A stretch of DNA of 64,000 bases from an uncultured Pseudomonadota bacterium (GCA_902787305.1 CADAFS010000002.1:31449-95448), one strand, 5' to 3'. Positions 869 to 56,249 are shown, counted from the stretch's first letter. Numbers and translations: made by a program. The notes: a model not told the origin generated them from the sequence alone.

Positions 869-958
869 GTGTTAGTGATTAGTGTAAGTGGTTAGTGACG
901 GGCGCGGATGCGCCCGTTATCCTTTTTCACTAACCACTACCCACTTACACTAACCACT
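869..958. repeat. Inverted pair of dispersed repeat (TAGTGTAAGTGGTTAGTGA family) flanking GC hairpin gggcgcggatgcgccc (899-917); acts as rplY terminator
   Basis: Forward copy 869-898, perfect 7-bp stem hairpin + T-run, reverse-complement copy 928-958. Same motif recurs at >=8 other sites in the window. Confidence 0.7.
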
Positions 959-975
959 ATTTTTATTCCTATGGT

Positions 976-1004
976 CTTGAAATGGGTTTTGTGATAACTA
1001 TATT
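976..1004 (+). promoter_or_regulatory. Possible RpoH (sigma-32)-type heat-shock promoter upstream of dnaK (CTTGAAA ... CTATATT)
   Basis: CTTGAAA at 976-982 then ~17-18 nt spacer then CTATATT. Partial match to sigma-32 consensus (CTTGAAA / CCCCATNT; alphaproteobacterial CTTG-N17-CYTATNT). Position is correct for dnaK. Confidence 0.3.
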
Positions 1005-1041
1005 TGTGGCATACAAAGACAAATAAATATAGGAGTAAAAA

Positions 1042-2937
1042 ATGGGAAAAGTATTAGGTATCGATTTGGGGACGACTAATTCCGCCATGGCGTTCATGGA
1101 CGGAAACGATCCAAAAATTATTGAAAATGCCGAAGGTGGCCGGACAACGCCGTCGGTTGTTGCAATTACATCGAACGGTGAACAGTTGGTCGGTATTACC
1201 GCCAAGAACCAGGCCGTGACGAATCCGGAAAATACTATTTATGAAATCAAACGCCTTATGGGGTTGCGTTATGATAGCCCAGAGGTTAAAGAGATTATGA
1301 AACGCGTGCCTTATAAAATTGTTGCGGGCGACAACGGGGACGCTTGGGTTGAAATTGATGGTAAAAAATATGCACCGTCACAGATTTCGGCGATGATTCT
1401 TGGCAAACTTAAAAAGGATGCGGAAAATTATTTGGGTGAAACGGTGACCGATGCGGTTATTACTGTGCCGGCGTATTTCAACGATTCACAACGTCAGGCA
1501 ACCAAAGATGCCGGTCGTATTGCGGGGTTGAACGTGTTGCGTATTGTGAACGAACCGACCGCGGCGGCGTTGGCGTATGGGTTGGATAAAAGCAAGGACG
1601 GCACAATTGTTGTATATGACCTTGGGGGTGGAACGTTCGATGTGTCGGTGCTTGAAATCGTTGACGGCGTGTTCGAAGTGAAATCAACCAATGGTGATAC
1701 GGCACTTGGTGGGTCGGACTTTGATGCGCGGATTTTGAAATATTTAATTGAAGAATTCAAGGCGCAAACCGGTATTGATTTGTCGAACGATAAATTGGCG
1801 CTGCAACGGTTAAAAGAGGCCGCAGAAAAGGCGAAAATTGAACTTTCGTCCAAGATGTCAACCGATATCAACCTGCCCTTCCTTACGGCGGATGCATCGG
1901 GGCCGAAACATTTCAATACGACATTGACGCGGGCAAAGTTGGAATCGTTGGTGGATGATTTGATTCAAAAAACGATTGAACCGTGCAAAAAGGCGTTAAA
2001 GGACGCGGGTATTGAAAAATCACAAATCAATGAAGTTATCTTGGTCGGTGGTCAAACCCGTATGCCCAAGGTTGTTGAAACGGTCAAAGAATTCTTTGGT
2101 CGCGAACCGCACAAGGGCGTGAACCCGGACGAAGTTGTCGCAATGGGTGCCGCGATTCAGGGTGGCGTGTTAAAGGGCGATGTCAAAGATGTTTTGCTTC
2201 TTGATGTGACACCGTTGTCATTGGGGATTGAAACATTGGGTGGTGTGTTTACACGTCTTATTGACCGCAACACAACAATTCCAACCAAAAAGTCCCAGGT
2301 GTTTTCAACCGCCGAAGATAATCAATCGGCCGTGACAATTCGTGTATTCCAAGGCGAACGCGACATGGCGGCGGATAATAAATTGCTGGGGCAATTTAAT
2401 TTGGAAGGTATCGCACCTGCGCCACGTGGAATGCCGCAAATCGAAGTATCTTTTGATATCGACGCAAATGGTATTGTTCATGTGTCGGCGCGCGATAAAG
2501 GCACGGGCAAAGAACAGGCGATTTCGATTAAATCTGATGGTGGACTTTCCGAAGAAGAAATCAAACGCATGGTTGATGAAGCGGCCGCCAATGCCGATGC
2601 GGACAAGAAAAAACGCGAATTAGCGGAGGCAAAAAATAACGCAGAGGCCGCAATCAACGCGATTGAAAAGTCACTAAAAGAACATGGTGACAAAATAAGC
2701 GCGGATGATAGGGGCGCAATCGAATCGGCCAAGAAGGAATTGGCGGATGAATTGGCGAAATCTGATGCGACCGCAGAATCACTGAAACAAAAGACCGAGG
2801 CATTATCCGAAAAAGCCATGAAACTTGGCGAAGCGGTGTATAAGGCACAACAAGAGGCACAAAATGCCGCCGGTGCAAATACGTCGGATGATAATAAATC
2901 CGATGGCGCACGCGATGCCGATTTTTCGGAAAAATAG
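1042..2937 (+). CDS. dnaK: Molecular chaperone DnaK (Hsp70)
   Basis: 631 aa. [17 protein letters not shown], and the [19 protein letters not shown] ... [24 protein letters not shown] substrate-binding region are canonical DnaK. Strong RBS aggagtaaaaaATG. Confidence 0.95.
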
Positions 2938-2985
2938 TGATGAGTGTTAGTGGTTAGTGAACCCGCCCAAATGGGCGGGTTTTAT
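2935..2985. repeat. Dispersed repeat copy (tagtgatgagtgttagtggttagtga) overlapping dnaK stop + terminator hairpin cccgcccaaatgggcggg-tttt
   Basis: Repeat 2935-2960, hairpin 2962-2984 followed by T-run. Left boundary of cargo cassette containing ORF 3046-3729. Confidence 0.65.
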
Positions 2986-3045
2986 AATAAAAAACTTGAC
3001 TTTATGCTTTATTGTGTTAGGTTTATGATTAATAAGGAGTAAAAA

Positions 3046-3729
3046 ATGAATAAAGTTTATAAGGCCAAAGTAGCTAGAATTGGGAAAAATGCGGCTGGTG
3101 AGGTTGTTATTATTGAAACGCAAGATGGACATTTTTTCCGATCTTGTGCTGAAGAACATAAGTTGAGACCACCAGAACAGAAGAAGCGTTTAGACTTTGT
3201 TTGTATTGCTATTGAAATGCAAGATAGAGTTTTTTTTCAATCTTGTGCAGAAGAACATAAGTTGAGACCACCAGAACAGACGAAGCGTTTATATGAGTCT
3301 GTTTGTGTTGGTGATGAAATAGAATACTCAGAGTTTGACGGTAGCTTTATAATTTTACGTAACATAACCCAAGATGAAAGGAGTGTTAAATCTTTTGTTG
3401 AAGAATCGACTCAATATGCAATAGTTAGTGATTTTTGGCATTCGCCAGACAATAAATCTACTCATATAGAATGTGTAAGTCCTGCTTGGAATGGGGTTAA
3501 TAAATTCGATGTTCCTGGTCATGTTGCGCTTAGATTGCTGGACGAAATAGTTGTAACAAAAACTCCAGGACAAGAAAAAGGAACGCATAACTATCTGTTT
3601 GGCGGTAATGTGACACTTGAGCAAGATATACAAAGAGAAATTCAGGAAAAAGTGTTACCTGGTTGGTCCAAGGAACAATTAGCATTATTGTCAAAATTCT
3701 CAACCGATTCAAACCACAGAAAACGGTAA
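3046..3729 (+). CDS. Hypothetical protein with internal tandem duplication (FFRSCAEEHKLRPPEQKKRL x2)
   Basis: 227-aa ORF with same RBS as dnaK (aggagtaaaaaATG). ~100-nt segment directly duplicated (3133-3190 vs 3233-3290). AT-rich relative to flanks. Bracketed by inverted repeat-family copies. Confidence 0.5.
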   Translation: MNKVYKAKVARIGKNAAGEVVIIETQDGHFFRSCAEEHKLRPPEQKKRLDFVCIAIEMQDRVFFQSCAEEHKLRPPEQTKRLYESVCVGDEIEYSEFDGSFIILRNITQDERSVKSFVEESTQYAIVSDFWHSPDNKSTHIECVSPAWNGVNKFDVPGHVALRLLDEIVVTKTPGQEKGTHNYLFGGNVTLEQDIQREIQEKVLPGWSKEQLALLSKFSTDSNHRKR

Positions 3730-3770: not shown

Positions 3771-3833
3771 AAAAAAAATGGGTGCGGATGCGCCCATTTT
3801 CCACTAACACTAATCACTTACACTGACTACTAT
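3771..3833. terminator. Bidirectional rho-independent terminator (A-run, gggtgcggatgcgccc hairpin, T-run) followed by inverted dispersed-repeat copy (3801-3833)
   Basis: 8-bp stem hairpin flanked by A9 and T4 between convergent genes. Repeat copy is the reverse complement of the family consensus. Confidence 0.7.
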
Positions 3834-3834
3834 T

Positions 3835-5088
3835 TTAACACCATCCGCGCAATTTCATCGCCGCGGCTATGCGTTTTATTGAATACATATACGCGGCTTC
3901 GCGCATGCTGACGCTGTATTCACATTTGATTTTATAAATTGCGTCAAATGCGGAAATCATGGCGGTGTGCTCTTTATCCGCAACTTCGCTTTCCGGCCAA
4001 TAATAACCGTATCGATTCTGTACCCATTCAAAATATGAAACCGTCACGCCGCCGGCGTTCGCCAAAATGTCCGGCACAATCATTACGCCACGTTTTAACA
4101 ACAATTCTTCGGCATCAAGTGTAGTTGGGCCGTTTGCGCCCTCTACTATCAAATTGGTTTTAATTAACGGTGCGGTATCGGTGTTTATTGTGTTTTCCAT
4201 TGCACAGGGGGACAAAACATCCACCGGCAATCCCCAAAAATCGTTGGTGGTTATTACGGTTGCACCCGGGGAATCGGCGATACTGCCTTTATTCATGTCC
4301 TTGTATTTCATAAGTGCATCAATATCGATACCGCTTTCATTATAAAGAATCGTATTCCATTCGGCGATTGCGACAATTTTTGCACCCATGTCAAATGCAC
4401 ATTTGGCGGTGAAACTGCCCACGTTGCCGAAACCTTGGACTGCAATTGTTGCGCCGTTTATATCCTTGGCCATGGTTTTTAGTGCCGACGCGATTGTTGT
4501 TGCAATTCCAAAACCGGTCGCACTGGTTCGCCCCAGTGAACCGTTCAATTCCACCGGTTTCCCGGTAAATGTGCCAAAAGAATTGTCGCCCGAAAGTTTG
4601 ATATATTCATCAATCATCCATGACATAATTTGCCCGTTTGTGTTGACGTCTGGTGCGGGAATGTCGGACTTTTCGCCAAGTATTGGATAAATTGCATCAA
4701 CATACCCGCGGCACAGACGTTCCAATTCGCCCGCCGATAATGTTTTTGGGTCAACGATAATTCCGCCCTTGCCGCCCCCATACGGCAAACCCGTCACCGC
4801 ACATTTGAATGTCATCCAAATTGAAAGCGCGGAAACTTCGTCACGTGACACGGCGGGATGAAAACGGATTCCACCCTTGGACGGTCCCAGTGCGGTATTA
4901 TGTTGTGCGCGGAAACCTGTAAAGGTTTTAATCGAACCATCATCCATTTTAACCGGAATTTGCACTTCGATAATGCGCGCCGGATTCTTTAAAATTTCGT
5001 ATACATTTTTATCAAGGCCCAATTTGTCACACGCAGATTTAACGCGGGCCTGGGCCCCCAATAACGGATTAAGATTTTCATTTGCCAT
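3835..5088 (-). CDS. gdhA: Glutamate dehydrogenase (Glu/Leu/Phe/Val dehydrogenase family)
   Basis: 417 aa. GGGKGG catalytic motif, GFGNVG Rossmann dinucleotide motif, typical bacterial GDH N-terminus. Confidence 0.85.
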   Translation of the reverse strand: MANENLNPLLGAQARVKSACDKLGLDKNVYEILKNPARIIEVQIPVKMDDGSIKTFTGFRAQHNTALGPSKGGIRFHPAVSRDEVSALSIWMTFKCAVTGLPYGGGKGGIIVDPKTLSAGELERLCRGYVDAIYPILGEKSDIPAPDVNTNGQIMSWMIDEYIKLSGDNSFGTFTGKPVELNGSLGRTSATGFGIATTIASALKTMAKDINGATIAVQGFGNVGSFTAKCAFDMGAKIVAIAEWNTILYNESGIDIDALMKYKDMNKGSIADSPGATVITTNDFWGLPVDVLSPCAMENTINTDTAPLIKTNLIVEGANGPTTLDAEELLLKRGVMIVPDILANAGGVTVSYFEWVQNRYGYYWPESEVADKEHTAMISAFDAIYKIKCEYSVSMREAAYMYSIKRIAAAMKLRGWC

Positions 5089-6300: not shown

Positions 6301-7377
6301 ATGAAAAAAACATCCACGTATAATGCAGAAACTTTAAATGGTGTTTTAAGGTTGGCTGAATTGTTTTGTGGCCCTGGTGGTATTGGATTGGGGGCAAAAC
6401 TTGCTAACGTGGACGGTTTAAAGATTAAACATGTCTGGGCTACGGATTACGATAAAGATACATGTGAAACATATAAAAGGAATTTGAACCCAGAAGCAAT
6501 AATTTGTGAAGATATTCGCAAAATGGATTTTGCAAAAATTCATTCAAAATATGGCGAGATAGATTGTTTGACTTTTGGTTTCCCTTGCAATGATTTTAGC
6601 ACGGTTGGCGAACAGAAAGGATTGCACGGGGTTTTTGGTGCTTTGTATCAATATTGTGTAAAAGCATTGGAAGAATTTAAACCGAAATTTTTTATAGCAG
6701 AAAACGTGAGTGGTTTGCGTAATGCTAATGATGGAGAAGCTTTTAATAAGATTTTGGAAGCTTTTAAAAATTGTGGATACAACATATACCCCAATTTATA
6801 TCATTTTGAAGAATATGGTGTTCCACAAAAAAGACATAGAGTCATTATTGTTGGTATACGCAATGATATAAATTTAAAGTTTAAAATACCGTCTACGAAA
6901 CCATATAAAAAAGTGGATAATTCTGTAAGAACTGCTTTGAAAGACATTCCAGAAAAAGCACCAAACAATGAATTAACTGCTCAATCTGCAATGGTTGTAG
7001 AAAGATTGAAATATATAAAGGAAGGTGAAAATGCTTTCACCGCAAAGTTGCCACCACACCTTCAATTAAATGTAAAAGGTGCAAAAATAAGTCAAATTTA
7101 TAAACGGTTAAAAGCAGATGAACCTTCTTATACGATTACTGGTAGTGGTGGCGGTGGCACACATGTATATCATTATAAAGAAAATCGTGCTTTAACAAAC
7201 CGTGAACGTGCAAGGATTCAAACCTTTACGGATGATTTTGTGTTTATAGGGTCGAAAGAAAGTGTTCGTAAACAGATAGGTATGGCGGTTCCACCAAGGG
7301 GTATGAAAATAATATTTGAAGCACTGTTAAATACAATTCTTGGTAATGATTATGAAACAATGGAAGCAAAAGTGTAA
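6301..7377 (+). CDS. DNA (cytosine-5)-methyltransferase (Type II R-M methylase)
   Basis: Motif I FCGPGG, motif IV GFPCNDFS, motif VI ENV, motif VIII QKRHRVIIVG, motif IX RERARIQTFTDDF, motif X GMAVPP. Confidence 0.85.
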   Translation: MKKTSTYNAETLNGVLRLAELFCGPGGIGLGAKLANVDGLKIKHVWATDYDKDTCETYKRNLNPEAIICEDIRKMDFAKIHSKYGEIDCLTFGFPCNDFSTVGEQKGLHGVFGALYQYCVKALEEFKPKFFIAENVSGLRNANDGEAFNKILEAFKNCGYNIYPNLYHFEEYGVPQKRHRVIIVGIRNDINLKFKIPSTKPYKKVDNSVRTALKDIPEKAPNNELTAQSAMVVERLKYIKEGENAFTAKLPPHLQLNVKGAKISQIYKRLKADEPSYTITGSGGGGTHVYHYKENRALTNRERARIQTFTDDFVFIGSKESVRKQIGMAVPPRGMKIIFEALLNTILGNDYETMEAKV

Positions 7378-7380
7378 AAG

Positions 7381-8370
7381 ATGTCCGATATCATATTAAA
7401 AAACGATTTGTTTGAAAAAATATTGTTAGAACCAGCCAGGGAGTGTGATGAGTTGCGGATTGTGTCCGGTTTTTCAACACCTGCTATGGTAGTGCATAAT
7501 TTAACTGAAGTAGAAGAGCAATTTGCAAAACCAGATTTAAAAATACAGTTAATTATAGGTATGACCCCCACAATTTCCGGTATTTCTAAAACGCATCATA
7601 AAAACTTTACTAAACTTGTTGCCAATCGTCCAAACTTTGTGTGTTCGTATATAAAATCAGATGCCAGTCCGATACATACAAAGCTTTATACGTGGCTAAG
7701 AAATGGTGTTCCACAAAAAGCATTTCTTGCTTCTGCAAATTATACGATAAACGCATTTAAAAAAGAACAGGATGAAATAGCAACGGAGTGCGACCCTGTT
7801 CAAGCTTTGGAATATTTTAATTCCAAAGTTCCGCTGTCTTTATATTGCACTTGTGATGAAGCAGAGGAAATGGTTAGAGAAGATGTTTTACGGCAACGTG
7901 TTGCAAGAACGAGAGAAAATTCCGATGAAGAACAACAGGTGCTTGTTGAAAATTCAGGCGTGGAAGGGCAAGACACTGTGTCTTTACCATTATTTGTAGT
8001 TAGAGAAAATAGAATTCATACTCATTCTGGTTTGAATTGGGGGCAAAGAGACCGTAGAAATCCGAATCAGGCCTATATACCAATACCGGCAAAAATAGGT
8101 AGAAGTGGTTTTTTCCCGCCACGTGGACAGCCTTTTGCTGTATTGACTTCAGACGGATTCCCGTTTGTATGTGTTGTAGCACAGGGCGGGGATAAAGCGA
8201 TACATACAACAAATAACAATAGTGAATTTGGTGAATATTTTAGACGCCGGTTGGGTGTCCCATTAGGCGCTCCTATAACATTAGATGATTTGGACCGTTT
8301 TGGGAATAGATATGTTAAATTCACAAAAATAAATGAAGAAGAATATTATATGGAATTCAACCCAAGCTAG
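7381..8370 (+). CDS. Putative Type II restriction endonuclease, PLD-superfamily (BfiI/NgoAVII-like) with C-terminal DNA-binding domain
   Basis: Starts 3 nt after the MTase stop (translationally coupled). N-terminal IHTKLYTWL...(20 aa)...LASANYT resembles the metal-independent PLD nuclease active site (His/Lys ... Asn, spacing H+20 as in BfiI). Call is family-level from motifs only. Confidence 0.45.
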   Translation: MSDIILKNDLFEKILLEPARECDELRIVSGFSTPAMVVHNLTEVEEQFAKPDLKIQLIIGMTPTISGISKTHHKNFTKLVANRPNFVCSYIKSDASPIHTKLYTWLRNGVPQKAFLASANYTINAFKKEQDEIATECDPVQALEYFNSKVPLSLYCTCDEAEEMVREDVLRQRVARTRENSDEEQQVLVENSGVEGQDTVSLPLFVVRENRIHTHSGLNWGQRDRRNPNQAYIPIPAKIGRSGFFPPRGQPFAVLTSDGFPFVCVVAQGGDKAIHTTNNNSEFGEYFRRRLGVPLGAPITLDDLDRFGNRYVKFTKINEEEYYMEFNPS

Positions 8371-8792: not shown

Positions 8793-11700
8793 TTGTTTTT
8801 AGGAAAGGAGATTTATATGCAAAACAAATTGGATTTATCTGTAAAGACAATAACCAAAAACAACATAAAATATAGTTGGGCATTTGTTTTGCTACTAATT
8901 CCTGTTACATCCTATGCTGATTTTAGTTTTAATAATTACCAATACACATTAAATTATTTACGGTCACAACATTTAACAAATGAATTCAGTCATTATACTA
9001 TCAATTTTTCCCCAACACAAAATGATGGGACAATAAATAGTTATGTATATCAAAATGGAACATTAACTCCAGTTAGTTATAATTATACCCTTACACCAAA
9101 TGCTGGGGACCATGGTGGTGGTGTCGTTCTTCATAATGGAGACGATTTAAACGTGTATTGGCACAATGAAACAAATTATAATCTTGTTGCTACTCCTGCA
9201 ACAATAAATACCATCGGAACAATATCTGGGGATTTTATAACTAATTCAGGGTCCGGACAAGCTGGGGGATTAACAAACAATGCTTTTACAATAAATAATT
9301 TATACGGTGATTTTATAGAAAACACTTCAACAACCAATGCTGGAGGCTTGCTTAATCTTGAGAACGGGCTTATTGGTAATATAGTGGGTAATTTTTTAAA
9401 CAATAATGGTATTGGATATGGGGGCGGTATCGACAATGAAGCCACTATTACAAATATAACATCAAATTTTGTTGGGAATATTGTCAATTATCCTGCTAGT
9501 GGTTCTGCCCTGGTTTTTGGGACAGCTATTGGCGGTGGAATTTATAATGCAGGGGCTATAACAGGTATATCGGGAGATTTTATTGATAATAGAGCGTATA
9601 ATTATTTTTCCGATTCCATAACCTCTTACTATTTTTACTCTTTTTCTGGTGGTGGAGCCTTATATAACGGAAAAAATTATTTACAGCCACAAAACAATGT
9701 TGAAACTAATATTATTGAGAACATACAGGGAAATTTTATCGGGAACTCTGCAGTTATTGAAAACATCTATAATCCTACAATAACCGATACTTTATTCTTC
9801 AGTGTTAATGGTGGTGCAATTTTCAATAACTATAATGGTCAAATACAAAACATAAATTCTGATTTTTATAACAATTTTGTGAATATAGATAATACAGGTT
9901 CTCTGTCTGGGATGGATACTATACAATTATGGTCAAGAGGCGGGGCTATTTATAATGAAGGTATAATCAACAATATTACTGGGAGTTTCATTAATAATAG
10001 CGCAACTATAAACAACAATAGTACTTTTAATACAGAAAACGTTCAATTATGGGCTTTTGGAGGCGCTATTTACAATGCTGGACAGCTTGGGTTGCAAGCC
10101 ACATCCAACGACATATTGTTTTCCGGCAACTCCGCAACTTTAGGCGGAGCTATTTATAACACATCCACTTTAACTATGAATATCGCAGAAAACCAACATA
10201 TAATTTTTGACACTGTCAGTGACGATATTTATAATAGCGGAACAATAACAGTATCAGGTGACGGAACTTTGTATTTACAATCTGTATCGGGCAATGGTGT
10301 TTTAAATCTTAATAATCATATTACTCATTTGGCAGACAATGCCGCATTTCAACAATATCTTCTTCAATTAGCGGAAGGGAGCATTTTATATGCTACCCCT
10401 AGTTCTCTTCTCTCTGACACAGGGGTATTAAATGATGGTACTTTATTTTTTTCAGACGGGGTATTATCCACGCACATAACCGGCTCTGGCAATATAATAA
10501 TAAACGGTGACGTGGTTAACGATTCCTACATAGGGAATCAAGTGATTATTAATTATGGTCACTCTTTAACAACTGCCGCTGGGTCGAATAGTTTGCATAA
10601 TGGCATTTTGAATAACGGGACATTATACTTAACAACTGGCTCATTAAGTACATGGACTGATATTACAGGCGATGGAACTATAATAACACTTGGTAATATT
10701 TCTGGTAACGCGGGTCAATTTGGGAACAATATTGTAAATGATTATACATTAACTTTAAACGGTGGAACATTAAATACAAGAATTAGCGGTGATGGAACGC
10801 TTGTTACCACAGGCAATGTAACAATTGATGTAACCGGTGCTTACTATGATACAGGGTATGTTAGTGTAGTAGAAAACAACATACAAAACAATGGGACATT
10901 AACACTTGTCGGTGGAGGTAGATTATGTACAAATATTTCCGGTGATGGTAATGTGGTGATTAATAATTCTTCGGGCTTTGTTGTTTCAGTAGCAGATGAC
11001 AATATTATAAGCGAATCCATAACAATTAATAATGAGGCAAATTTAAATGCATCCGCAAATAGTATTGGCGGAAATGTTATTAATAATGGTCAATTACATC
11101 TTTGGGGTGGGACTTTAACACATAATATTGCAGGAACAGGTTATACAGGCATACATGGTAACACCGAAACATCTGCAAATAATTTGTTAACAAACATTAG
11201 TTTAAGCGGTCTTACTGAATCCGAAGAAATATCACTAACTTTAACAGATGGCACATTACAACGAGTTATAAGCAATGGTAACAATGCAAATAATAATATC
11301 ATTATAGACGGTGATGTTTTATCATCTCCATCAAATCTATTAGTAAATGTTTCTGTAAATGATGGGGCTGTATTAACGTTAACCAATGGTACTTTATCTA
11401 AAAATATAACTGGTAATGGAACGTTATCGACAAGCGATTTAACAACAAGTGCGAATAATCTTGGAATTAACGTTAATAACATAGGCAATTTAACTCTTTC
11501 TGGTGGAACAATAACTCATAATATTACCGGTACAGGGCAAACCACAATCAATGGTGCTGTTACCAATAATGCGCTTATATCTCAAACAATGGTTGTTAAT
11601 TCTGGTAAATCTCTGACAACCGTCGCTGAGGGTATTGGCGGAAATATTTTAAATTCGGGGAATGTTACTTTAACTGGCGGGACCTTAAATAATAATATAT

Positions 11701-13598
11701 CTGGTGGCACAATAACAATAGATGGTAATGTTATTAACGATGGTAATTTGTACGGTTCTCTGGTTATAAATTCAAACAAAAGCCTAACAACTGATGCAGA
11801 TAATATATATTATTCCGGGTTACAAAATAACGGGGAATTGATTTTAACAGGTGGCACAATTTCCGGTGGTATAAATGGTTTATTCTACATATCGGGTAAT
11901 GTAACCAACAATGCTACACAAACTGGACAAATAAACATCTCTAACGGTGGTATGTTTACAACCGGTGGAAATTTATTATCAACAAATAATGCTATTATAA
12001 ATAATGGTACACTTAACATTACCAGTGGCAACCTGCAACAAAATGTTACTGGCGGAAACACCATAATTGCTCAAAACGCAACAACCAGCGCAACCAGTTT
12101 TGGCAATCTGGAATTAAACGGCATTATGAATGTCGGAACCAATACTGTTAATACGGCAAATGCAGATATTAATGGCACTATAAACCTTGGTATATCATCA
12201 TTAAACAAAAATTCCAGTACATATACCGGTGGGCACATTATAGCAGATGACATTGTGTTTGGCGATAATGCCATGCTTAATTTGACCATTACGGACACAA
12301 ACCTGCAAAAGGGTGGTTCCAGTGGTGATATAGAAATAATTACCGCAAATGGTGAATGGACGGGTGATATCGCTACATTTACCAGTAATAATTTGTATGA
12401 TATAGCATATAATACCGAAAATCACACATTTACGTTTACACGTAAAAAATTCGGTGCAGATTTAATAACAGAATTGAACGGGACTGAATTAGATATCAAT
12501 ATCGCCGGGGTTTGGGATGAACTGCAATCATCAGATAATCCAAATATACAAACCATAATAAATGCTATTGACTATAATTCCCAACATAACGCGACCAAAT
12601 ATGCTAAATTAATCCATAATTTGGCGCCACAAAACCATCAGGTTACGGTTGGGGCGGTACGTAACGCCAACACAGTTATAGATAATCATATATTCACTAG
12701 GTTGGCAACACTTAGACGCCCACAAATTAATAGAACCAACGCTAATCTAAGAAAAAGACGCGCAAATCCTTTCTATTATTATGGAAATTATCGTGGCAGA
12801 AACGGTGGTGATACAGAACCGACAACTAACAATGGTATGTGGATAGAAGGACTTTATAATTACGCACAACAAAAAGATGACACAAAGTTTTCTGGCAAAA
12901 CGTTTGGTGTTATGGGCGGTTTTGATTCTAAATTAACGGAACATTTGACCGCTGGTTTAGGGTATGCATTTAACAAAACAAACATTGACGCCGATAATCA
13001 CGATATTGACGCCATGGGGCATACGGGTTTTGTATATGCCGAATATAAACCAACACAATGGTATCTGGACGCTTTGTTGTCATATAACCTGACAAATTAT
13101 CAAAATTCAGCCGCACTTATCGACAATTTGACCGTAAAATCTGATTATAAAACCAACAGTTTGAGTGGCGCCTTGACGTCGGGTTACGATTTTCAAAAAG
13201 GTTTGGATTTATACGGTGGTCTGAATTATATCGGAATTAAACAGGACGCTTACACAGATACCGCCGGTCAATATATCAAAGCCGATGACACACAAATGTT
13301 GACCCTAAAAGCCGGTGGAAGATATAAATTAACAAGTCAAAAAATGAAAAGAGCTAGCACCGTTTTGAAAGCTGCGGTTTTGTACGATGTTATGTCTGAT
13401 GATGGGGTTGCAACGGTAACAGTAGGCAATAATAATTACATTGTTCATGGTAATGGTATTGACCCGTTCGGTGTTCAGGCAGGTATTATGTTTGATTCAT
13501 TTGGTGGCAATACTTATTTATCGCTAGGTTATGACCTTGAATGGCGTAATAATTTCATTAGTCATACAGGTTATATAAAATTGAAATACAATTTCTAA
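8793..13598 (+). CDS. Giant autotransporter / polymorphic-membrane-protein (Pmp)-like adhesin, 1601 aa
   Basis: N-terminal signal peptide (alternative start ATG 8817 MQNKLDL...). Passenger packed with GGA[I/L] tetrapeptides (GGAIYN x>=6) and FxxN repeats (GDFITN, GNFLNN, GDFIDN...), the Pmp hallmark. Many (N)ITG(G)/GTL beta-helix-like repeats. C-terminal ~300 aa beta-barrel translocator ending ...LKYNF (terminal Phe). Strongly AT-rich Asn/Thr/Gly codon usage. Confidence 0.75.
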   Translation: MFLGKEIYMQNKLDLSVKTITKNNIKYSWAFVLLLIPVTSYADFSFNNYQYTLNYLRSQHLTNEFSHYTINFSPTQNDGTINSYVYQNGTLTPVSYNYTLTPNAGDHGGGVVLHNGDDLNVYWHNETNYNLVATPATINTIGTISGDFITNSGSGQAGGLTNNAFTINNLYGDFIENTSTTNAGGLLNLENGLIGNIVGNFLNNNGIGYGGGIDNEATITNITSNFVGNIVNYPASGSALVFGTAIGGGIYNAGAITGISGDFIDNRAYNYFSDSITSYYFYSFSGGGALYNGKNYLQPQNNVETNIIENIQGNFIGNSAVIENIYNPTITDTLFFSVNGGAIFNNYNGQIQNINSDFYNNFVNIDNTGSLSGMDTIQLWSRGGAIYNEGIINNITGSFINNSATINNNSTFNTENVQLWAFGGAIYNAGQLGLQATSNDILFSGNSATLGGAIYNTSTLTMNIAENQHIIFDTVSDDIYNSGTITVSGDGTLYLQSVSGNGVLNLNNHITHLADNAAFQQYLLQLAEGSILYATPSSLLSDTGVLNDGTLFFSDGVLSTHITGSGNIIINGDVVNDSYIGNQVIINYGHSLTTAAGSNSLHNGILNNGTLYLTTGSLSTWTDITGDGTIITLGNISGNAGQFGNNIVNDYTLTLNGGTLNTRISGDGTLVTTGNVTIDVTGAYYDTGYVSVVENNIQNNGTLTLVGGGRLCTNISGDGNVVINNSSGFVVSVADDNIISESITINNEANLNASANSIGGNVINNGQLHLWGGTLTHNIAGTGYTGIHGNTETSANNLLTNISLSGLTESEEISLTLTDGTLQRVISNGNNANNNIIIDGDVLSSPSNLLVNVSVNDGAVLTLTNGTLSKNITGNGTLSTSDLTTSANNLGINVNNIGNLTLSGGTITHNITGTGQTTINGAVTNNALISQTMVVNSGKSLTTVAEGIGGNILNSGNVTLTGGTLNNNISGGTITIDGNVINDGNLYGSLVINSNKSLTTDADNIYYSGLQNNGELILTGGTISGGINGLFYISGNVTNNATQTGQINISNGGMFTTGGNLLSTNNAIINNGTLNITSGNLQQNVTGGNTIIAQNATTSATSFGNLELNGIMNVGTNTVNTANADINGTINLGISSLNKNSSTYTGGHIIADDIVFGDNAMLNLTITDTNLQKGGSSGDIEIITANGEWTGDIATFTSNNLYDIAYNTENHTFTFTRKKFGADLITELNGTELDINIAGVWDELQSSDNPNIQTIINAIDYNSQHNATKYAKLIHNLAPQNHQVTVGAVRNANTVIDNHIFTRLATLRRPQINRTNANLRKRRANPFYYYGNYRGRNGGDTEPTTNNGMWIEGLYNYAQQKDDTKFSGKTFGVMGGFDSKLTEHLTAGLGYAFNKTNIDADNHDIDAMGHTGFVYAEYKPTQWYLDALLSYNLTNYQNSAALIDNLTVKSDYKTNSLSGALTSGYDFQKGLDLYGGLNYIGIKQDAYTDTAGQYIKADDTQMLTLKAGGRYKLTSQKMKRASTVLKAAVLYDVMSDDGVATVTVGNNNYIVHGNGIDPFGVQAGIMFDSFGGNTYLSLGYDLEWRNNFISHTGYIKLKYNF

Positions 13599-14007: not shown

Positions 14008-14301
14008 ATGAAACAACAGTCTAATCTTTTGAAACAATTCCAGGTATGGATGGAACAAAAGGGTTATAAAAAAACAACACAATCGAATTTGCCAAGCACT
14101 ATTGCAACATATACGGCGTCTTTCCTTCAAATTTGCGAGTGGGAATCTAAAACACCGGAACAAGTTGCAGAATCTATTTCTGACATAGTGCTTGATTACA
14201 CGATAAAAACTCATTCTGCTAGAGGAAGAATGCGCAGTAGGTCCATCCGGGCAAGTGCGGTCGCCTTCAAAAACTTTTTAATCGAATCACAGGTTGCGTG
14301 A
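14008..14301 (+). CDS. Hypothetical small protein (weak resemblance to phage-integrase N-terminal SAM-like/core-binding domain)
   Basis: 97 aa. RBS aaggat 7 nt upstream. Overlaps next ORF by 4 nt (ATGA). Confidence 0.35.
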   Translation: MKQQSNLLKQFQVWMEQKGYKKTTQSNLPSTIATYTASFLQICEWESKTPEQVAESISDIVLDYTIKTHSARGRMRSRSIRASAVAFKNFLIESQVA

Positions 14302-14627
14302 TGAATAAGATTGCCGAATTAAATGATAACCTTAGAAAACATATGTGGTCCCCTGGTCGTAATAAAATCGTTTTGACCAGGGGTGTATGTTCTTTGCCGT
14401 TGATTGAACAAATGTTGTTATTGAAAAAGGTCAGAAATTTTAATGACTTTAATAAAGCAAACGATGTTTATAAACACCATGACTTTGGAAAAATTGAACA
14501 CAATGGGACAAACTATTTTTTCAAGATAGATTATTATGACCCATCGATGGAATATGGTTCAGAAAACCCAGCAAACGAAAATATAACAATCCGGGTTTTA
14601 ACGATAATGCGTGCAGACGAATATTAA
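14298..14627 (+). CDS. DUF3768-like protein (family typical of plasmids/ICEs)
   Basis: 109 aa. Motifs HHDFGKIEH, FFKIDYYD, TIRVLTIMRADEY recalled as the DUF3768 signature. Family call from memory, unverified. Confidence 0.4.
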   Translation: MMNKIAELNDNLRKHMWSPGRNKIVLTRGVCSLPLIEQMLLLKKVRNFNDFNKANDVYKHHDFGKIEHNGTNYFFKIDYYDPSMEYGSENPANENITIRVLTIMRADEY

Positions 14628-24490: not shown

Positions 24491-24598
24491 TTTATATCTC
24501 CCGTTATGTGATGGTTTTTTCAATAGACAAAATAGCATAAAAAATGTTTCTTTGTCAACTTATTTGTGATATAATTGTTCGGAAAAATGGAGAAAATA

Positions 24599-29976: not shown

Positions 29977-30051
29977 CCGTCACGACACGTCGTACCGCGG
30001 TTACACTTTTTTAATTTGACTTGCCGGCGATATGGCGATAGTATATGGGTG

Positions 30052-50444: not shown

Positions 50445-50539
50445 ATAGTGGGAAGTGTTAGTGTAAGTGGTTAGTGAGCGGGGCAATTGCACGATTATTC
50501 CAGAATCCACTTATCACTTACACTAACCACTTACACTAT
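50445..50539. repeat. Inverted pair of dispersed repeat (atagtgggaagtgttagtgtaagtggttagtgag ... ccacttatcacttacactaaccacttacactat), 'empty' MITE-like unit
   Basis: Forward 50445-50478, reverse 50507-50539. ~28 bp between them. Confidence 0.65.
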
Positions 50540-53250
50540 CTCAACATCTTGTAAATAAAGTTTATTGGCACGATTAGCAATGCCAGGCCGGCGGTGGTCA
50601 ACCATTGTACCGGGGTTAGTGGTTCAAGTGACAAAACATTACCGCCGAACGTCACACATGCATAAAGACCGGCAAAAACAACAAATGTCACAATCAAAAA
50701 CATTGGATTTTTGGATAGGCCTGAAAATATATCAAAACCACGCACCCGAACACAGAATCCATTTAGCATTGCCATAATTATTATCAACGCAAACCGGGCG
50801 GACATGGCCGCATCGCCAAAAATTGCAACAAATGGTTCGGCAAGGGTCAGTGTGAATATAAACACACCCGCAATTGTTGTCCATATAACCCCCGCGATTG
50901 TGTCGCCGGTAATAAGTTTTGCGTTTTTGCCCGCGGGTGGTTCGGTCATATATTCCGCGCGCGGTGGTTCGCCACCGAACGCAAGCGAATTCAAACTGTC
51001 GATTACAATGTTTATTATCAGTATCTGTACGGCCATCAATGCCTCTATACCGATAACCAGTGGGAACAAAATACTTATCGCCGCCAGTGTAAAGTTTATC
51101 GGCAATTGAAATCGCAAGAATCCCGTCACATTGTGCATAAATGTTCGGCCCATAAGGATACTGTTGCCAATGGAAACAAAGTTGTTGTCCGTGATTATGA
51201 TATCACTTGCTTCCTTGCATACATCGGTGCTGTCGCCCATGGCGTATCCGACATCCGCACCCTTTAATGCCGGCGCATCGTTTGTACCATCGCCACACAT
51301 ACCGATACAAAGCCCCATTTCTTGGGCAATTTGAACAAGGCGTAATTTTGTATGTGGGGTTGCGCGCGCAATAACACGAATTTGTGGCAAAATGCGTTTG
51401 ACCGCCGCGTCGGACATTTTATCAAATTCGGTTGCGGTTATGGCGATATCATCGTCACTTTGCAAAATTTTACTTTCGCGGGCGATAACACGCGCCGTTT
51501 CCAATATATCGCCCGTTATCATCATAACAGACACACCTGAACCCTGCAATTCCGTCACCATATCCGCAACACCGGGGCGCACATCGTCACGCAACGCGGA
51601 AACACCGATGAATACTAAATTGTTTGGCATTTCGCCCGATTTATGTGTTCCATCATAATATGCCGTTGCGATAACACGCATGGCACGCCGGGCATTAGAC
51701 ACAATAATTCGTCGCACCGTTGCCCGGTTTAATGGATGCGTTGCGCCGGTCGCATCAACATAAAACCGCGAATGTGCAAGGATAATTTCCGGCGCCGCCA
51801 TGACATAGGTGCGCAGCCCCGACTTGGTTTTAACCGTTGTTGCGGAAAACTTGGTCGCACTATCGAATAGGGTTTTTGTTAAAACCTGGTTTTCGCGCTT
51901 TATGGTGGACACCATTTTATGATTTAATCCCAATGCACCAAACAGCGCGCGTTCCGTACTGTTGCCACCAACGATTTGCCCGCCCGCATCAAGCATGGCA
52001 CGCCCATTTAAGACGATGTTATTCATCAACAATCGCACGGCCACGCCACCCGTATTTTGGTTAAACCAAATGTTTGTGCCATCGCCGGTATAATTTGCCA
52101 CAGGTTGCATTTTCCCATACGTAATTGTGCCGGTTTTATCGGTGCAAAGTAATTGTATATTTCCCGCCTCTGGAATTTTATTCGGATTTTTCGCAAGCAA
52201 GTTTTCGCGTGTCATTTTGTGTGCGTTTTGGGCGGTTATGATTTCAATGATAAACGGCAAACCTTCGGGAACCGCCGCCACGAATATAGTAAGCCCCAAT
52301 GTTATCGCATGCGCCACAGTAAGCACAAAATCGCCGAGTCCGTTAAATCCGTCCAAATACCAATGCATGACAACCATGATAACCGCAATACAAATCGCGC
52401 AAATTCCGCCAATTTGTCCAACAACGCCCGCCATTCGGTCAAGGCCACGTTGCAACGCCGTTTTTTCTTCGCCGATATCGGACAAGGTTTTTAATATCTT
52501 GGCATTTTCGGTATCCATTCCAACGCGTGTGACAATCATTGCGCCGCCGCCACCATGAACCGTCGTTCCGGCAAAGACATAGTTCGCGTTGGTATAATCG
52601 TTCGCTGTTATTGGGGCCGCACGATTATATTTGAAATTTGGGAGTGGGGATTTGTGAACCTCTTCACTTTCGCCATTTAGAACGGAATTATTTACCGAAA
52701 TATGCCCGTGGACCAAGTATCCATCCGCCGGGATTCTTTCGCCGGCCTGGAGCAAAACTATATCGCCGACAACTATTTCGGTGCTGTCGATATTTCGGAT
52801 TCGTCCGCCGCGGATAACATTGCACAAAAGCACCGATGCACGCCGCCGCAATTCAAGAGTGCTGTGTTGGCTGCGCAGATGGGTAATAACATTTACAATC
52901 GCAACAATAATGATAACGATGCCGATACCAATCGCCTCTATAATATCGCCATAGCCAAGCAGTGCAAGGCCGATGAACAAACCCGCCATTATAAGTAAAA
53001 TTAGGTTTATTTTTGTCCGAAAGACATCGACCAAGAAATCCCATACACTTTTGACCCGCGGATCGGGCATGGTGTTCGATCCATATTTCTTGCGATTTTG
53101 CGCGACGGCCGCCAAAGATAACCCGTTTAGTGTCAAAAATCCCCCCTGCTTTCTGTGTCCGCATTTTATCGCATTTTTGCCCCCCGGGGCAAGGAGAATT
53201 TTTTGATTATTTACCCGTAATTTGCATAATTGATTGCAATATATGCCCAT
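50536..53250 (-). CDS. Cation-transporting P-type ATPase (P2-type, Ca2+/Mg2+-like)
   Basis: 904 aa. DKTGTIT phosphorylation site, MITGD, GDGTNDAPALKGADVGYAMG, 10 TM segments, N-terminal ...GLS..AAVAQNRKKYGSN. True start unclear (overlaps NUDIX gene 3' end). Confidence 0.85.
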   Translation of the reverse strand: MGIYCNQLCKLRVNNQKILLAPGGKNAIKCGHRKQGGFLTLNGLSLAAVAQNRKKYGSNTMPDPRVKSVWDFLVDVFRTKINLILLIMAGLFIGLALLGYGDIIEAIGIGIVIIIVAIVNVITHLRSQHSTLELRRRASVLLCNVIRGGRIRNIDSTEIVVGDIVLLQAGERIPADGYLVHGHISVNNSVLNGESEEVHKSPLPNFKYNRAAPITANDYTNANYVFAGTTVHGGGGAMIVTRVGMDTENAKILKTLSDIGEEKTALQRGLDRMAGVVGQIGGICAICIAVIMVVMHWYLDGFNGLGDFVLTVAHAITLGLTIFVAAVPEGLPFIIEIITAQNAHKMTRENLLAKNPNKIPEAGNIQLLCTDKTGTITYGKMQPVANYTGDGTNIWFNQNTGGVAVRLLMNNIVLNGRAMLDAGGQIVGGNSTERALFGALGLNHKMVSTIKRENQVLTKTLFDSATKFSATTVKTKSGLRTYVMAAPEIILAHSRFYVDATGATHPLNRATVRRIIVSNARRAMRVIATAYYDGTHKSGEMPNNLVFIGVSALRDDVRPGVADMVTELQGSGVSVMMITGDILETARVIARESKILQSDDDIAITATEFDKMSDAAVKRILPQIRVIARATPHTKLRLVQIAQEMGLCIGMCGDGTNDAPALKGADVGYAMGDSTDVCKEASDIIITDNNFVSIGNSILMGRTFMHNVTGFLRFQLPINFTLAAISILFPLVIGIEALMAVQILIINIVIDSLNSLAFGGEPPRAEYMTEPPAGKNAKLITGDTIAGVIWTTIAGVFIFTLTLAEPFVAIFGDAAMSARFALIIIMAMLNGFCVRVRGFDIFSGLSKNPMFLIVTFVVFAGLYACVTFGGNVLSLEPLTPVQWLTTAGLALLIVPINFIYKMLR

Positions 53251-54285: not shown

Positions 54286-54401
54286 ATTTAACCCGTCTTT
54301 TTGTCTTGTTTTTTATAAAAAACTGCGACTAAAAAGCCGCGGCACTCCGTTTTGCTACACTTAAATCCGCTTAACCGCGGCTTTGCGTTAGTAAAGACGG
54401 G

Positions 54402-54492
54402 TGGCGGAGATGATGGGATTCGAACCCATGATACGGTTGCCCGTATACCACATTTCCAATGTGGCGCACTAGACCAACTATGCGACATCTCC
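54402..54492 (-). tRNA. tRNA-Ser (anticodon GGA)
   Basis: Reverse complement GGAGATGTCGCATAGTTGGTCTAGTGCGCCACATTGGAAATGTGGTATACGGGCAACCGTATCATGGGTTCGAATCCCATCATCTCCGCCA. Acceptor 7 bp, anticodon loop TTGGAAA, long variable arm (class II), T-arm GGGTTCGAATCCC, CCA encoded. Confidence 0.8.
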
Positions 54493-54510
54493 GGATTTTT
54501 TAGATTTTAT

Positions 54511-54909
54511 TTATTCTTCGTCGGATTCCTCGCCGTCACCCATAACATCTTCGGCGACCAATTCCGCCGCATCAACCGGTGCGTCACCAACCAATGTGTC
54601 TTCCAGTTCCGCATCAATATCGCGCAGTTCGGGGTTAACACTGCTAACCTCTAATGTTTCTTCGGCGTTTTCGATGGCCGGCGTTTCCTTATATGATTGC
54701 ACGAATTCGTGGCGGATTCCCGCGATATCAAGTTTTCCACTTGCGATTTCGCGCAATGCCACAACCGTCGGTTTATCGCCGTCGCGTTCAACCACCGGCG
54801 CGGCCCCACCGTTCAGGTCGCGAACCCGCTGTGACGCAAGCATCCCCAGTTCATAGCGGCTTTCCACAAATGGTAATGTATCAGAATTAGTCGTGCGTGC
54901 CATATTCAA
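54511..54909 (-). CDS. rpoZ: DNA-directed RNA polymerase subunit omega with acidic C-terminal extension
   Basis: MARTTNSDTLPFVESRYELGMLASQRVRDLNGGAAPVVE... matches RpoZ core. 132 aa. Confidence 0.75.
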   Translation of the reverse strand: MNMARTTNSDTLPFVESRYELGMLASQRVRDLNGGAAPVVERDGDKPTVVALREIASGKLDIAGIRHEFVQSYKETPAIENAEETLEVSSVNPELRDIDAELEDTLVGDAPVDAAELVAEDVMGDGEESDEE

Positions 54910-54955
54910 TTCCTTTGTTGAAATGTATCATTAGCCACGCTATAATGATTCAAAA

Positions 54956-56248
54956 ATGGTCAAAATGCAAGAAAAAAATATAAAAACTTTATCTTTTGGG
55001 TGCCGTCTTAACGCGATGGAATGCGAACGGATTGGCGGGATGTTGTCGCGCGCCGGCGTTTGCGCGGTGGTTGTGAATACCTGTGCCGTGACCGCAGAGG
55101 CCGAACGCCAATGTGGCCAGGCGGTGCGAAAAATCGCACGCGAAAATCCGGGTGCAATAATTTTTGTGACCGGGTGCGCCGCGACAAGGAATCCGGGACT
55201 GTTTGAAAAAATTCCGGGTGCGGCGGTTATTCCGAACGAAAAAAAGATGGATTTAGATGTTTATCTGGGTAAATTATCGCAAAAAAATCGCGGCAATTCG
55301 TGCCCGGAAATAACCGGTAATTTTGATACAGAAAACAAACTTTCCAAAAAGTTTATTCAGATTCAAAACGGATGCAATCACGATTGCACTTATTGTGTGA
55401 CGCGACTGCTCCGTGGGCCGGCGGTGTCGTTCGAATATGATGAAATTTTGGCAAATGTGCGTGCGGCGACCGCGGATGGGTTTGGGGAAATTGTGCTAAC
55501 CGGTGTGGATGCGGCATCTTATGTTCGGGTTTATGACGGGCGGCCATTTTTGATTTCAGATTTGTGCCGGCGGTTGTTAAAAGACGCACCGGAAATTGAA
55601 CGGCTGCGCCTTTCGTCGGTGGACCCGGCGGTGCCGGCAATCCGCGATATTATCAAAATGATGAAAAGCGAACCCCGTTTTATGCCACATTTGCACCTTT
55701 CCATGCAGTCGGGGTCGGACACGATTTTGCACGCGATGCGGCGGCGACACACGGCGGACACGGTGCGCGATTTGGCGCGCCTTGCGAATGGAAGTGTTAG
55801 TTTTAGTTGGGATATAATCTGTGGTTTTCCAGGCGAAACGGAAGAATTATTTGCCGATACATTAGAATTGGCGCGCGAATTAAAACCAATAAGGATTCAC
55901 GCATTTCCTTTTTCGCCCCGCCCCGGGACGGTGGCGGCGAATATGCCGAACCCGGTTCCACGCAATATCGCACGGGCGCGCGTTCATAAAATAACCGCCG
56001 TTGCGGATGAAAACTTGCGTGAGTTTATGGAACGTCAGGTCGGCAATATGTGCCGGGTTTTGGTTGAATCCGACAATATCGCACGCACACCGGATGATAT
56101 CCCGATTAAAATTGGCGGTGCGCCCATCCCGCCCCGCACAATTTGCGATGTAAAGATTACCGGGATTGATGACGGGGTGTTAGTGGGCGGTCCGTCCCGT
56201 CACCGCAAAGCGGTGCCGAGGCCGCGACGGACTAACCACTTACATTAA
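54956..56248 (+). CDS. mtaB: Radical-SAM methylthiotransferase, MiaB/RimO/MtaB family (likely tRNA t6A37 methylthiotransferase MtaB)
   Basis: N-terminal MTTase domain Cys triad (C..C..C in FGCRLNAMECE...VNTCAV...TGCAA). Radical-SAM CNHDCTYC. TRAM-like C-terminus. Stop codon lies in a dispersed-repeat copy (56231-56249). Confidence 0.75.
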   Translation: MVKMQEKNIKTLSFGCRLNAMECERIGGMLSRAGVCAVVVNTCAVTAEAERQCGQAVRKIARENPGAIIFVTGCAATRNPGLFEKIPGAAVIPNEKKMDLDVYLGKLSQKNRGNSCPEITGNFDTENKLSKKFIQIQNGCNHDCTYCVTRLLRGPAVSFEYDEILANVRAATADGFGEIVLTGVDAASYVRVYDGRPFLISDLCRRLLKDAPEIERLRLSSVDPAVPAIRDIIKMMKSEPRFMPHLHLSMQSGSDTILHAMRRRHTADTVRDLARLANGSVSFSWDIICGFPGETEELFADTLELARELKPIRIHAFPFSPRPGTVAANMPNPVPRNIARARVHKITAVADENLREFMERQVGNMCRVLVESDNIARTPDDIPIKIGGAPIPPRTICDVKITGIDDGVLVGGPSRHRKAVPRPRRTNHLH

Positions 56249-56249
56249 T
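56231..56249. repeat. Dispersed repeat copy, inverted (actaaccacttacattaat) overlapping mtaB-like 3' end
   Basis: Reverse complement of the TTAGTGTAAGTGGTTAGT core. Confidence 0.55.

Follow-up and report, generated by a model that had tools for sequence, protein, structure and literature searches.

TAGTG arrays: a stop-codon-rich intergenic repeat family at gene ends in a subclade of the alphaproteobacterial order Rs-D84

The arrays in the window

The window considered here, a stretch of 64,000 nt from an uncultured Pseudomonadota bacterium (GCA_902787305.1, CADAFS010000002.1:31449-95448), comes from an alphaproteobacterium of the gut lineage Rs-D84 / "Ca. Enterousia", with a genome of about 0.9 Mb. 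Short arrays of TAGTG-type units lie at or near the ends of several of its genes, among them those for L25, DnaK, Gdh, phosphofructokinase (PFK, gene pfk), a P-type ATPase and an MtaB-like radical-SAM protein (Table 1), and an earlier note on this DNA had described them as a dispersed repeat family. These TAGTG arrays are a real and strongly non-random feature: all the copies that had been listed exist in the window sequence, enriched far beyond chance. The 20-mer core TTAGTGTAAGTGGTTAGTGA has 9 matches in the window at up to 3 mismatches, compared with 0 in 100 shuffles, and a simple detector (at least 3 NAGT[GA] cores at a spacing of 5-8 nt, with at most one C) returns 8 arrays against 0.86 per shuffle. 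A profile made from the copies of other genomes (nhmmer) finds exactly 10 sites in the window and none besides.

Each array consists of 3-8 cores of the form (T/A)AGTG(G), placed 6-7 nt apart and without any C on the G-rich strand (TAGTG/AAGTGG units). The extended consensus reads TTAGTGG-TTAGTG-TAAGTGG-TTAGTGG-TTAGTG, and one of the compared loci (L009) has an array of 58 nt. The unit is non-palindromic and, being C-free, does not pair with itself; in predicted folds solitary arrays are unpaired, and pairing occurs only between two inverted arrays. The G-rich strand holds stop codons in all three frames, while the C-rich strand has one open frame. When the window was scanned with the Rfam covariance models, the gathering score was reached by two tRNAs only, neither of them overlapping an array, and an origin from rRNA or tRNA, the alternative that the earlier note had named, is thus ruled out for the motif.

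Two pairs of arrays, 859-898/928-959 and 50445-50478/50507-50539, are adjacent, inverted and hairpin-forming, with predicted folds of -50.9 kcal/mol (z = -9.45) for the cassette at 853-970 and of -34.5 kcal/mol (z = -4.67) for that at 50438-50548. The same pairing had been proposed for the arrays at 2935/3801 and 28814/29954, which instead stand 0.85-1.1 kb apart and bracket open reading frames (ORFs). Similarly, a hairpin reported at both 901 and 3784 is exact at 901-916, and its second copy, at 3780-3795, carries one mismatch (GGGTGC...). The combination of this hairpin with an array arm is common to 901-959 and 3780-3835 (family D4). An RpoH-type heat-shock promoter (CTTGAAA ... CTATAT, 968-1005) is located upstream of dnaK, directly after the cassette or terminator, and is conserved across the whole Rs-D84 set of orthologous loci (L116-L144).

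Placement, polarity and stop codons

The placement of the arrays was surveyed in 916 kb, consisting of 115 loci and the window, which together hold 211 arrays. All except one of these (210/211) are intergenic, the exception being inside a called coding sequence (CDS). Arrays are present in 40% of convergent intergenic regions, 15% of co-directional ones and 12% of divergent ones. Of the arrays, 28% have a GC-rich perfect hairpin no more than 14 nt away on the 3' side, as read along the G-rich strand; the value for random intergenic control positions is 5%, and the 5' side has little hairpin enrichment. Both parts of the original observation, the siting at gene 3' ends and the abutting GC-rich hairpins, are therefore sustained in the larger sample.

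The polarity of the arrays is equally marked. Adjacent inverted pairs are inward-facing in 33 cases and outward-facing in none, with gaps of 16-130 nt between the arms. The 33 resulting cassettes have a median length of 105 nt and a median predicted fold of -44 kcal/mol, and such a cassette can fold, according to these predictions, into an extended stem of 30-45 bp. The outer ends read TAGTG...CACTA, which makes the cassette a short element with terminal inverted repeats and without coding capacity. An A-run flanks the outer stem in 9/33 pairs and a T-run in 2/33, so that the long outer stem was rejected as a canonical terminator; the rarity of these runs suggests that it is the inner hairpin which usually acts as a canonical bidirectional terminator, with the arrays as its flanks. 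In an alternative layout, seen in 24 cases, the array stands between a complete terminator, which it follows directly (AAAAATCCCnnnnGGGATTTTT-TAGTGG...), and further repeat modules. Single arrays in co-directional regions are 27 sense and 20 antisense, a split by which a strictly sense RNA element of the 3' untranslated region was rejected. Sense arrays begin a median of 5 nt past the end of the stop codon. Terminator scans of these sequences, with a simple scan and with a consensus tool, were too noisy to yield the share of terminators that arrays flank, giving counts near the shuffled expectation.

The supply of stop codons by the arrays was followed in the 146 arrays whose upstream neighbour is the end of a gene on the same strand. 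The array starts exactly on the stop codon in 32 of them and contains the stop in about 10 more (together about 29%). Further peaks of array starts at +5 to +7 nt from the stop indicate that the stop often falls within a degenerate first unit. The effect is visible in codon usage at gene ends, where 58 of 145 TAG stops (40%) read TAGTG, TAA being the normal stop (559/811). Stops in every frame of the G-rich strand allow an array to abut an ORF's end, or to take its place, with termination of that ORF preserved.

Within the window, arrays had been credited with the stop or last codons of dnaK, pfk and the mtaB-like gene, which is what we find, and the stops of the L25 and P-type ATPase genes are array TAGs as well. 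PFK ends in ...GVYVGVSG followed by the stop, while orthologues end in ...GIYIG(E..), about 25 of them sharing ...GIYIG before they diverge from VSG-stop. The codon sequences downstream of dnaK in relatives read GEI-stop or similar. The reading frame of the MtaB-like protein runs on through a short array, then a module with a GC-rich hairpin and then an array in antisense, from which the protein gains a 24-residue tail ...GVLVGGPSRHRKAVPRPRRTNHLH that ends in ...TNHLH and the stop; the 3' cassette of its gene is also present in another locus (L072). Judging from the PFK and MtaB-like tails and from the survey of 146 arrays, the erosion of CDS ends inferred in the earlier note is correct, and more general than it had stated.

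Clade restriction, turnover and mosaic neighbours

The order Rs-D84 has genomes of about 0.75-1.0 Mb with about 90% coding density (PMC12306168). DnaK and neighbouring proteins of the window turn up on ENA metagenome contigs, and an exact-protein look-up with RpsD gave no match. Within a collection of species-representative genomes, exact copies of the 18-mer TAGTGTAAGTGGTTAGTG lie in more than 114 stretches, which stem from 46 assemblies, all of them uncultured Alphaproteobacteria or "Candidatus Enterousia" metagenome-assembled genomes (MAGs) from ruminant or other animal guts. The motif scan that had been recommended thus extends the enrichment well beyond the window and yet to one clade only, as the 18-mer, carried by at least 46 species-level MAGs, is confined to an Rs-D84 subclade. 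The density of arrays is about 1 per 6-10 kb, and the array profile has 0 matches in 595 kb of sister-clade and outgroup DNA. A search of a viral collection gave one match to the 18-mer, in a host-like fragment (L196, an IMG/VR contig of 7380 nt). This contig encodes dnaB, with an array after it, a helix-turn-helix protein and a split large terminase (N-terminal part 1763-2365, C-terminal part 5806-6669), and its appearance is that of host DNA bearing the remnant of a prophage or gene transfer agent.

Orthologous loci gathered through DnaK, and so independently of the motif, give a view of array turnover. In about 25 relatives with DnaK 85-91% identical (about 200 kb) there are zero arrays, and the L25 and dnaK genes are followed by TAA and a plain terminator. 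Arrays in the L25-dnaK spacer are found only in loci with at least 93% DnaK identity; among these carriers the arms are clearly homologous, the spacer bases and the number of units vary, and the central hairpin has a compensatory change in its outer base pair between the window and L116. The array at the 3' end of dnaK is specific to the window, being absent from relatives at 93-98% DnaK identity, and the synteny with L116, L117 and L144 stops exactly at this array. One operon junction is seen in three states, empty in L029 (TAAAAGGAG), with 1.5 units in L040 (TAGTGGTTATTGAAAGGAG) and with 3.5 units in L073 (TAGTGGTTAGTGTAAGTGGTTAGTGAAGGAG), and at another site one species has a complete 70-nt cassette that another lacks. 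The comparison of orthologous regions suggested by the earlier note accordingly reveals polymorphism in both presence and length. Old sites exist too, such as the gdh 3' array, which is shared with L057 (88% protein identity), and an operon junction that holds a doublet in at least 9 species. The array at 50445..50478 is conserved in L072 and L078, with the DNA beyond it differing.

The arrays are combined with other repeats in a modular fashion. The DNA on their 3' side includes at least 8 recurrent module families, with 92 non-orthologous against 11 orthologous similar pairs across species. Among these families are TCTGGAAT...ATTCCAGA, AAAACGGCGC...GCGCCGTTTT, GGCACTATAATGTGCGGC...GCCGCACA, GCGGAATCCATGATTAC...ATAAATAAAAGTTTAG and GTCATACCGGCG...CCGGTATC, along with a variant array of 7-nt units, CATTAGTCATTGGTCATTAGT, and composite arrangements of arrays with other modules are seen, the result of a modular recombination of parts. 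The similarity of the 14 nt flanking the 18-mer on each side is higher among copies of one assembly (0.457) than between assemblies (0.386; 0/500 permutations), which points to intragenomic copying or homogenisation.

Variable DNA is bracketed by inward-facing arrays at two places of the window, around ORF227 (3046..3729) and ORF241 (28866..29591), both of which are window-only among the loci compared. Among strains that encode one and the same L19 protein, the segment 28729-29970, from the rplS terminator to the DUF2155 gene, is hypervariable (compared with L200-L209). Across the survey, co-directional regions with an array contain synteny breakpoints in 26% of cases and those without an array in 14% (p = 6e-4). 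The corresponding values in convergent regions are 34% and 40%, and this lack of a difference means that the association with breakpoints may be no more than an effect of operon ends. The island at 5.7-21.2 kb, low in GC and integrase-bearing, contains zero arrays.

ORF227 contains an 82-nt direct repeat, 90% identical (3111-3192/3210-3291, with starts 99 nt apart), and has no Pfam match and no homologue in the other loci. In other strains, the segment between rplS and the DUF2155 gene holds a PQ-loop gene and differing ORFs in place of the ORF241 of the window. The island (5700-21270) has 35% GC and adjoins tRNA-Gly(ccc) at 21197-21270. A dense cluster of small palindromic repeats (CCACCCCTCTCTAGAGGGGAAC, GTCATCCCGCTGAAAAGCGGGATCC, CGCGGAATGACGGCAC, the last of these twice, and GTTCCCCTTCTTTCCAAGAAGGGGTGG) occupies 57190-57480, and its module types recur in L083, L092, L094 and L107; it lies inside a called ORF (56245..57582, minus strand, 445 aa, no Pfam match), the 5' part of which is probably not coding. 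Long palindromic elements resembling MITEs (miniature transposable elements with inverted repeats), of the form GTCATTGCGAGCG...GCGTGGCAATCCAGT ... ACTGGATTGCCACGC...CGCTCGCAATGAC, are found in other species (L075, L089, L098, L099, L025 and L058), and are often directly preceded by a TAGTG array and the variant 7-nt array. At the gdh 3' end of L057 (1414-1520), an H1-type GC-rich module (CCCGTCACCACAAAGTGGTGCCGCGG) sits within the loop of a GGGCGCA...TGCGCCC terminator hairpin, from which it follows that repeat modules can nest in one another.

Table 1. TAGTG arrays of the window with their hairpins, profile matches and gene contexts, followed by the genes of the array-free island
Feature	Position	Strand	Profile match	Remarks
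Array, 6 units	859..898	+	872-901	L25 gene (232..861) stops at its first TAG; left arm of inverted-pair cassette
Central GC-rich hairpin GGGCGC-GGAT-GCGCCC	901..916			exact GGGCGCGGATGCGCCC; centre of the 859-959 cassette
Array, 5 units	928..959	-	928-959	right cassette arm; then TTTTTATT and the RpoH-type dnaK promoter; no gene end here
Solitary array	2935..2960	+	2949-2960	TAG is the dnaK stop; TAA and array-free in relatives
Intrinsic-terminator hairpin AACCCGCCC-AAAT-GGGCGGGTTTT	2960..2983	+		directly after the preceding array
Hairpin GGGTGCGGATGCGCCC	3780..3795	-		with T-run 3770-3779, terminator of minus-strand gdh
Array	3801..3834	-	3804-3824	directly after the TAA stop (3835-3837) of gdh (3835..5088, -); orthologous array in L057
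Array	25664..25700	+	25677-25700	overlaps the end of pfk (24544..25677); encodes the final VSG codons and the TAG stop; no hairpin after
Degenerate array	28814..28839	+	28824-28837	between rplS terminator (28746-28771) and second bidirectional hairpin (28841-28862); left boundary of strain-specific DNA
Array	29954..29977	-	29957-29972	adjoins GC-rich module, upstream of DUF2155 gene; conserved in L207; right boundary of variable segment
Array	50445..50478	+	50453-50477	upstream of rpsD; no plus-strand gene end; left cassette arm
Array	50507..50539	-	50518-50539	P-type ATPase gene (50536..53250, -) stops at its TAG (50538-50536); right cassette arm
Cassette	56178..56248		56231-56244 (-)	short plus-strand array (56178-56188), GC-rich H1-type hairpin module, minus-strand array (56229-56248); whole cassette translated as the final 24 codons of the MtaB-like gene (54956..56248)
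Island: C5 DNA methylase	6301..7377	+
Island: NgoFVII-type restriction enzyme	7381..8370
Island: autotransporter-like protein	8793..13598			1601 aa
Island: DUF3768 protein	14298..14627
Island: HUH Rep/G2P-like ORF	14879..15517	-		weak match
Island: C5 DNA methylase	16071..17294	-
Island: tyrosine integrase	19515..21095	-

Interpretation of the arrays and its meaning

In the reading that we prefer, with a probability of about 0.5, a lineage-specific, non-autonomous family of mosaic intergenic repeats, built around terminators and belonging to one Rs-D84 subclade, has the arrays as its common arm or linker module. Arrays take up the few permissive sites that a roughly 90%-coding genome offers, namely on a stop codon or from the base that follows it, and beside intrinsic-terminator hairpins. 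Copies would be created, resized and homogenised within genomes, either through recombination or gene conversion between copies or by an enzyme recognising the AGTG cores, and slippage of the short units would add to the copying of whole modules. Their persistence may be due to their being harmless or mildly useful, as stronger bidirectional terminators, terminator extensions or 3'-end hairpins, and they may also act as portable homology for the exchange of neighbouring DNA.

Among known repeats, the best-supported likeness in kind is to the bacterial interspersed mosaic elements (BIMEs), the neisserial intergenic mosaic elements (NIMEs, made of dRS3 and RS modules) and the Correia/MITE cassettes, as defined in PMC3337134 and PMC3898611. 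Enterobacterial BIMEs are likewise extragenic and high-copy, consist of several short modules, lie near stops at gene 3' ends and in operons, and alternate in orientation to form hairpins. In E. coli, repetitive extragenic palindromes (REPs) within about 15 nt of a stop codon are said to affect translation, a report ascribed to Liang, Rudd and Deutscher in 2015. The arrays differ from BIMEs in their non-palindromic, C-free unit of 6-7 nt, in overlapping the stop codon itself, in the lack of a detected REP-associated tyrosine transposase (RAYT), and in their host, with its reduced genome of roughly 0.9 Mb. Correia/MITE elements share with the array cassettes a length of about 100-150 nt, inverted arms of about 26-35 nt, the lack of a transposase of their own and a position beside genes. 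The cassette ends read TA-GTGG...CCAC-TA, which would fit a TA duplication, although the empty sites are not clean; the Correia terminus also begins with TATAGTGG. Against this likeness, many arrays are single arms, the cassette centre differs among subfamilies, and arm length varies by whole units. In Neisseria, intergenic dRS3 20-mers bracket varied, longer RS modules in the same manner as a short conserved array does here; a further, possible parallel lies in the two bracketed ORFs and the excess of co-directional synteny breaks, which does not extend to convergent regions and may reflect no more than operon ends. The dRS3 repeat carries terminal inverted repeats of 6 bp and is known to be targeted by phage or transposase, while no such enzyme or phage link was found for the arrays. 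The neisserial mosaic elements are tied to variable neighbouring DNA and have been proposed to promote its recombination and exchange (PMC3898611).

Several results weigh against this interpretation. The search for a mobilising enzyme was made in array-centred DNA, amounting to 0.99 Mb from 46 genomes and the window, each partly covered: tblastn with E. coli RayT gave a best E of 6, no ORF with the HUH...Y-x-x-N-P signature of RAYT/Y1 enzymes was present (the positive control of this search matched), and ORF clustering in the same partly covered genomes returned no transposase among the gene families of variable contexts, which are housekeeping genes, ABC ATPases, tRNA synthetases and small GIY-YIG nuclease genes. 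No precise empty site and no clean target-site duplication was seen at four empty/filled comparisons (insertions of 10-70 nt), whose junctions, blurred by divergence, are compatible with a TA duplication. Conservation is also uneven: at orthologous sites the AGTG cores are 94% conserved, compared with 77% for the spacers and 80% for the flanks, a contrast that is partly inflated because cores were defined in the reference copy, and in the alignment of the window with L116 the 40 core positions hold about 1 change and the 24 spacer positions about 9. Cores more conserved than spacers are not expected from the neutral decay of a selfish copy and hint at a constraint at the level of the host or of a factor, and the exact 18-mer is kept in 46 species. 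Lastly, the putative terminator or 3'-end role is one that we infer from structure only, and some arrays are in tight operon junctions or after terminators, where a role as terminator extension cannot apply.

Two candidates encountered during this search deserve mention. The HUH Rep-like ORF of the island was rejected as a mobiliser, given that the island is array-free and that the ORF has no homologue in the other array-bearing loci. The GIY-YIG genes (79-127 aa) occur in differing contexts with flanking inverted repeats of their own (e.g., TGTCATCCCGTGGCTTGTTCGGGTCCCGC), at 6457-6840 in L007, 493-855 in L070, 3452-3769 in L110 and 54046-54285 (minus strand) in the window. In two of the three compared loci (L007 and L070) an array is found 90-130 nt upstream, and the window copy adjoins tRNA-Ser(gga) and is not near an array. 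This proximity is a lead, not a link.

The main rival, less probable than the mosaic family and tentative, takes the arrays as periodic AGTG binding sites for a clade-specific multimeric or tandem-domain factor. Where stop codon and terminator meet, such a factor would recognise G/U(T)-rich single strands, either of RNA or of non-template DNA, and would control termination efficiency, 3'-end stability or ribosome release, in a geometry like that of TRAP or HutP sites. The RNA sites of TRAP and HutP consist of periodic (G/U)AG triplets with short spacers, and the arrays share with them conserved 3-4-nt cores, free spacers, a short non-helical period, a single-strand-like composition and a position beside a terminator hairpin. 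The differences are that no homologous protein was identified, and that the arrays occur in both orientations and at hundreds of loci, not at one operon. The C-free strand, the conserved cores and free spacers at orthologous sites, the 18-mer kept in 46 species, the fixed polarity to hairpins (33 inward pairs against 0 outward) and the start of sense arrays at a median of 5 nt after the stop all speak for a bound factor, as does the persistence of arrays in genomes of roughly 0.9 Mb that otherwise shed non-essential DNA (PMC12306168). Against this explanation stand the split of single arrays in co-directional regions (27 sense, 20 antisense), the 24 arrays just past a complete terminator and hence outside the upstream transcript, the variation of array presence and length between close relatives at the same gene, the sister lineages with the same genes and terminators that are entirely array-free, the partly inflated core/spacer contrast, which is conditioned on the reference copy, and the fact that no candidate factor was identified. 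In a bolder and more doubtful form of this idea, the arrays would be a genome-wide punctuation, whose periodic AGTG cores would be read at the stop codon by a clade-specific factor on single-stranded RNA or non-template DNA; this factor would tie the completion of translation to the making of transcript 3' ends at hundreds of genes of a minimal genome, and the element would spread by bringing its own stops and terminator.

The classical REP/REPIN mobilised by a RAYT, as proposed in the earlier note, is improbable. The extragenic, high-copy arrays and their inverted, hairpin-forming doublets do recall REPINs, as do their long vertical persistence, their similarity within genomes, and the A-run or T-run flanks of some doublets, which resemble REPIN doublets co-opted as terminators (PMC3337134). 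However, REPs have a palindromic core, which the single C-free unit lacks, the number and order of units vary, and neither tblastn nor the signature search found a RAYT in the array-centred DNA, where, RAYTs being normally flanked by their own REPs, they should be enriched. With no palindromic core, and with no RAYT found in the array-centred DNA, the arrays are not members of the REP/REPIN family. Of the proposed MITE- or REP-type mobile unit, the dynamic behaviour survives, in the form of presence/absence and length polymorphism; the unit itself is non-palindromic and is only one module of a mosaic, and neither a RAYT, in the 0.99 Mb searched, nor a clean target-site duplication was found.

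The two remaining explanations fit poorly and are both very unlikely. A DNA uptake signal (a DUS/USS-like word), enriched by biased uptake and recombination, would account for a motif conserved across many species of one clade independently of orientation, for its absence from the recently acquired island, and for inverted pairs at terminators, where neisserial DUS are also found single or inverted (PMC3898611), but the arrays, at about 1 per 6-10 kb, are far sparser than DUS (about 1 per kb), vary in length and unit order where a DUS is one fixed word, appear as insertions of 10-100 nt and not as words derived by point mutation, and lie inside genes in only 1/211 cases, and competence genes are reported for UBA9783 with no mention for Rs-D84 (PMC12306168). 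Independent, microsatellite-like growth, through slippage of 6-7-nt units from TAG-TG seeds at gene ends without copying between loci, agrees with the states of 0, 1.5 and 3.5 units at one orthologous junction, the 58-nt array of L009 and the stop codons in phase with the units, but not with the 18-26-mers, identical yet non-periodic (unit order A-B-A), that recur at more than 114 unrelated loci, with arrays that travel with specific hairpins and modules, or with strictly inward-facing pairs.

A reduced genome of about 0.9 Mb would be expected to have shed its repeats, and here an array family holds a large share of the gene ends. The arrays have rewritten stop codons, accounting for 40% of TAG stops, together with the C-termini of PFK and the MtaB-like protein, and they mark limits of variable DNA segments in a gut lineage that is both abundant and uncultured, for which they also provide a simple sequence marker of the clade. 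For annotation, this implies that gene callers will misplace 3' ends and call spurious ORFs across array mosaics. The range of bacterial interspersed repeats is widened to include a non-palindromic, stop-codon-rich arm and, if a recognising factor exists, the arrays would offer a tractable case of coupling between stop codon and terminator.

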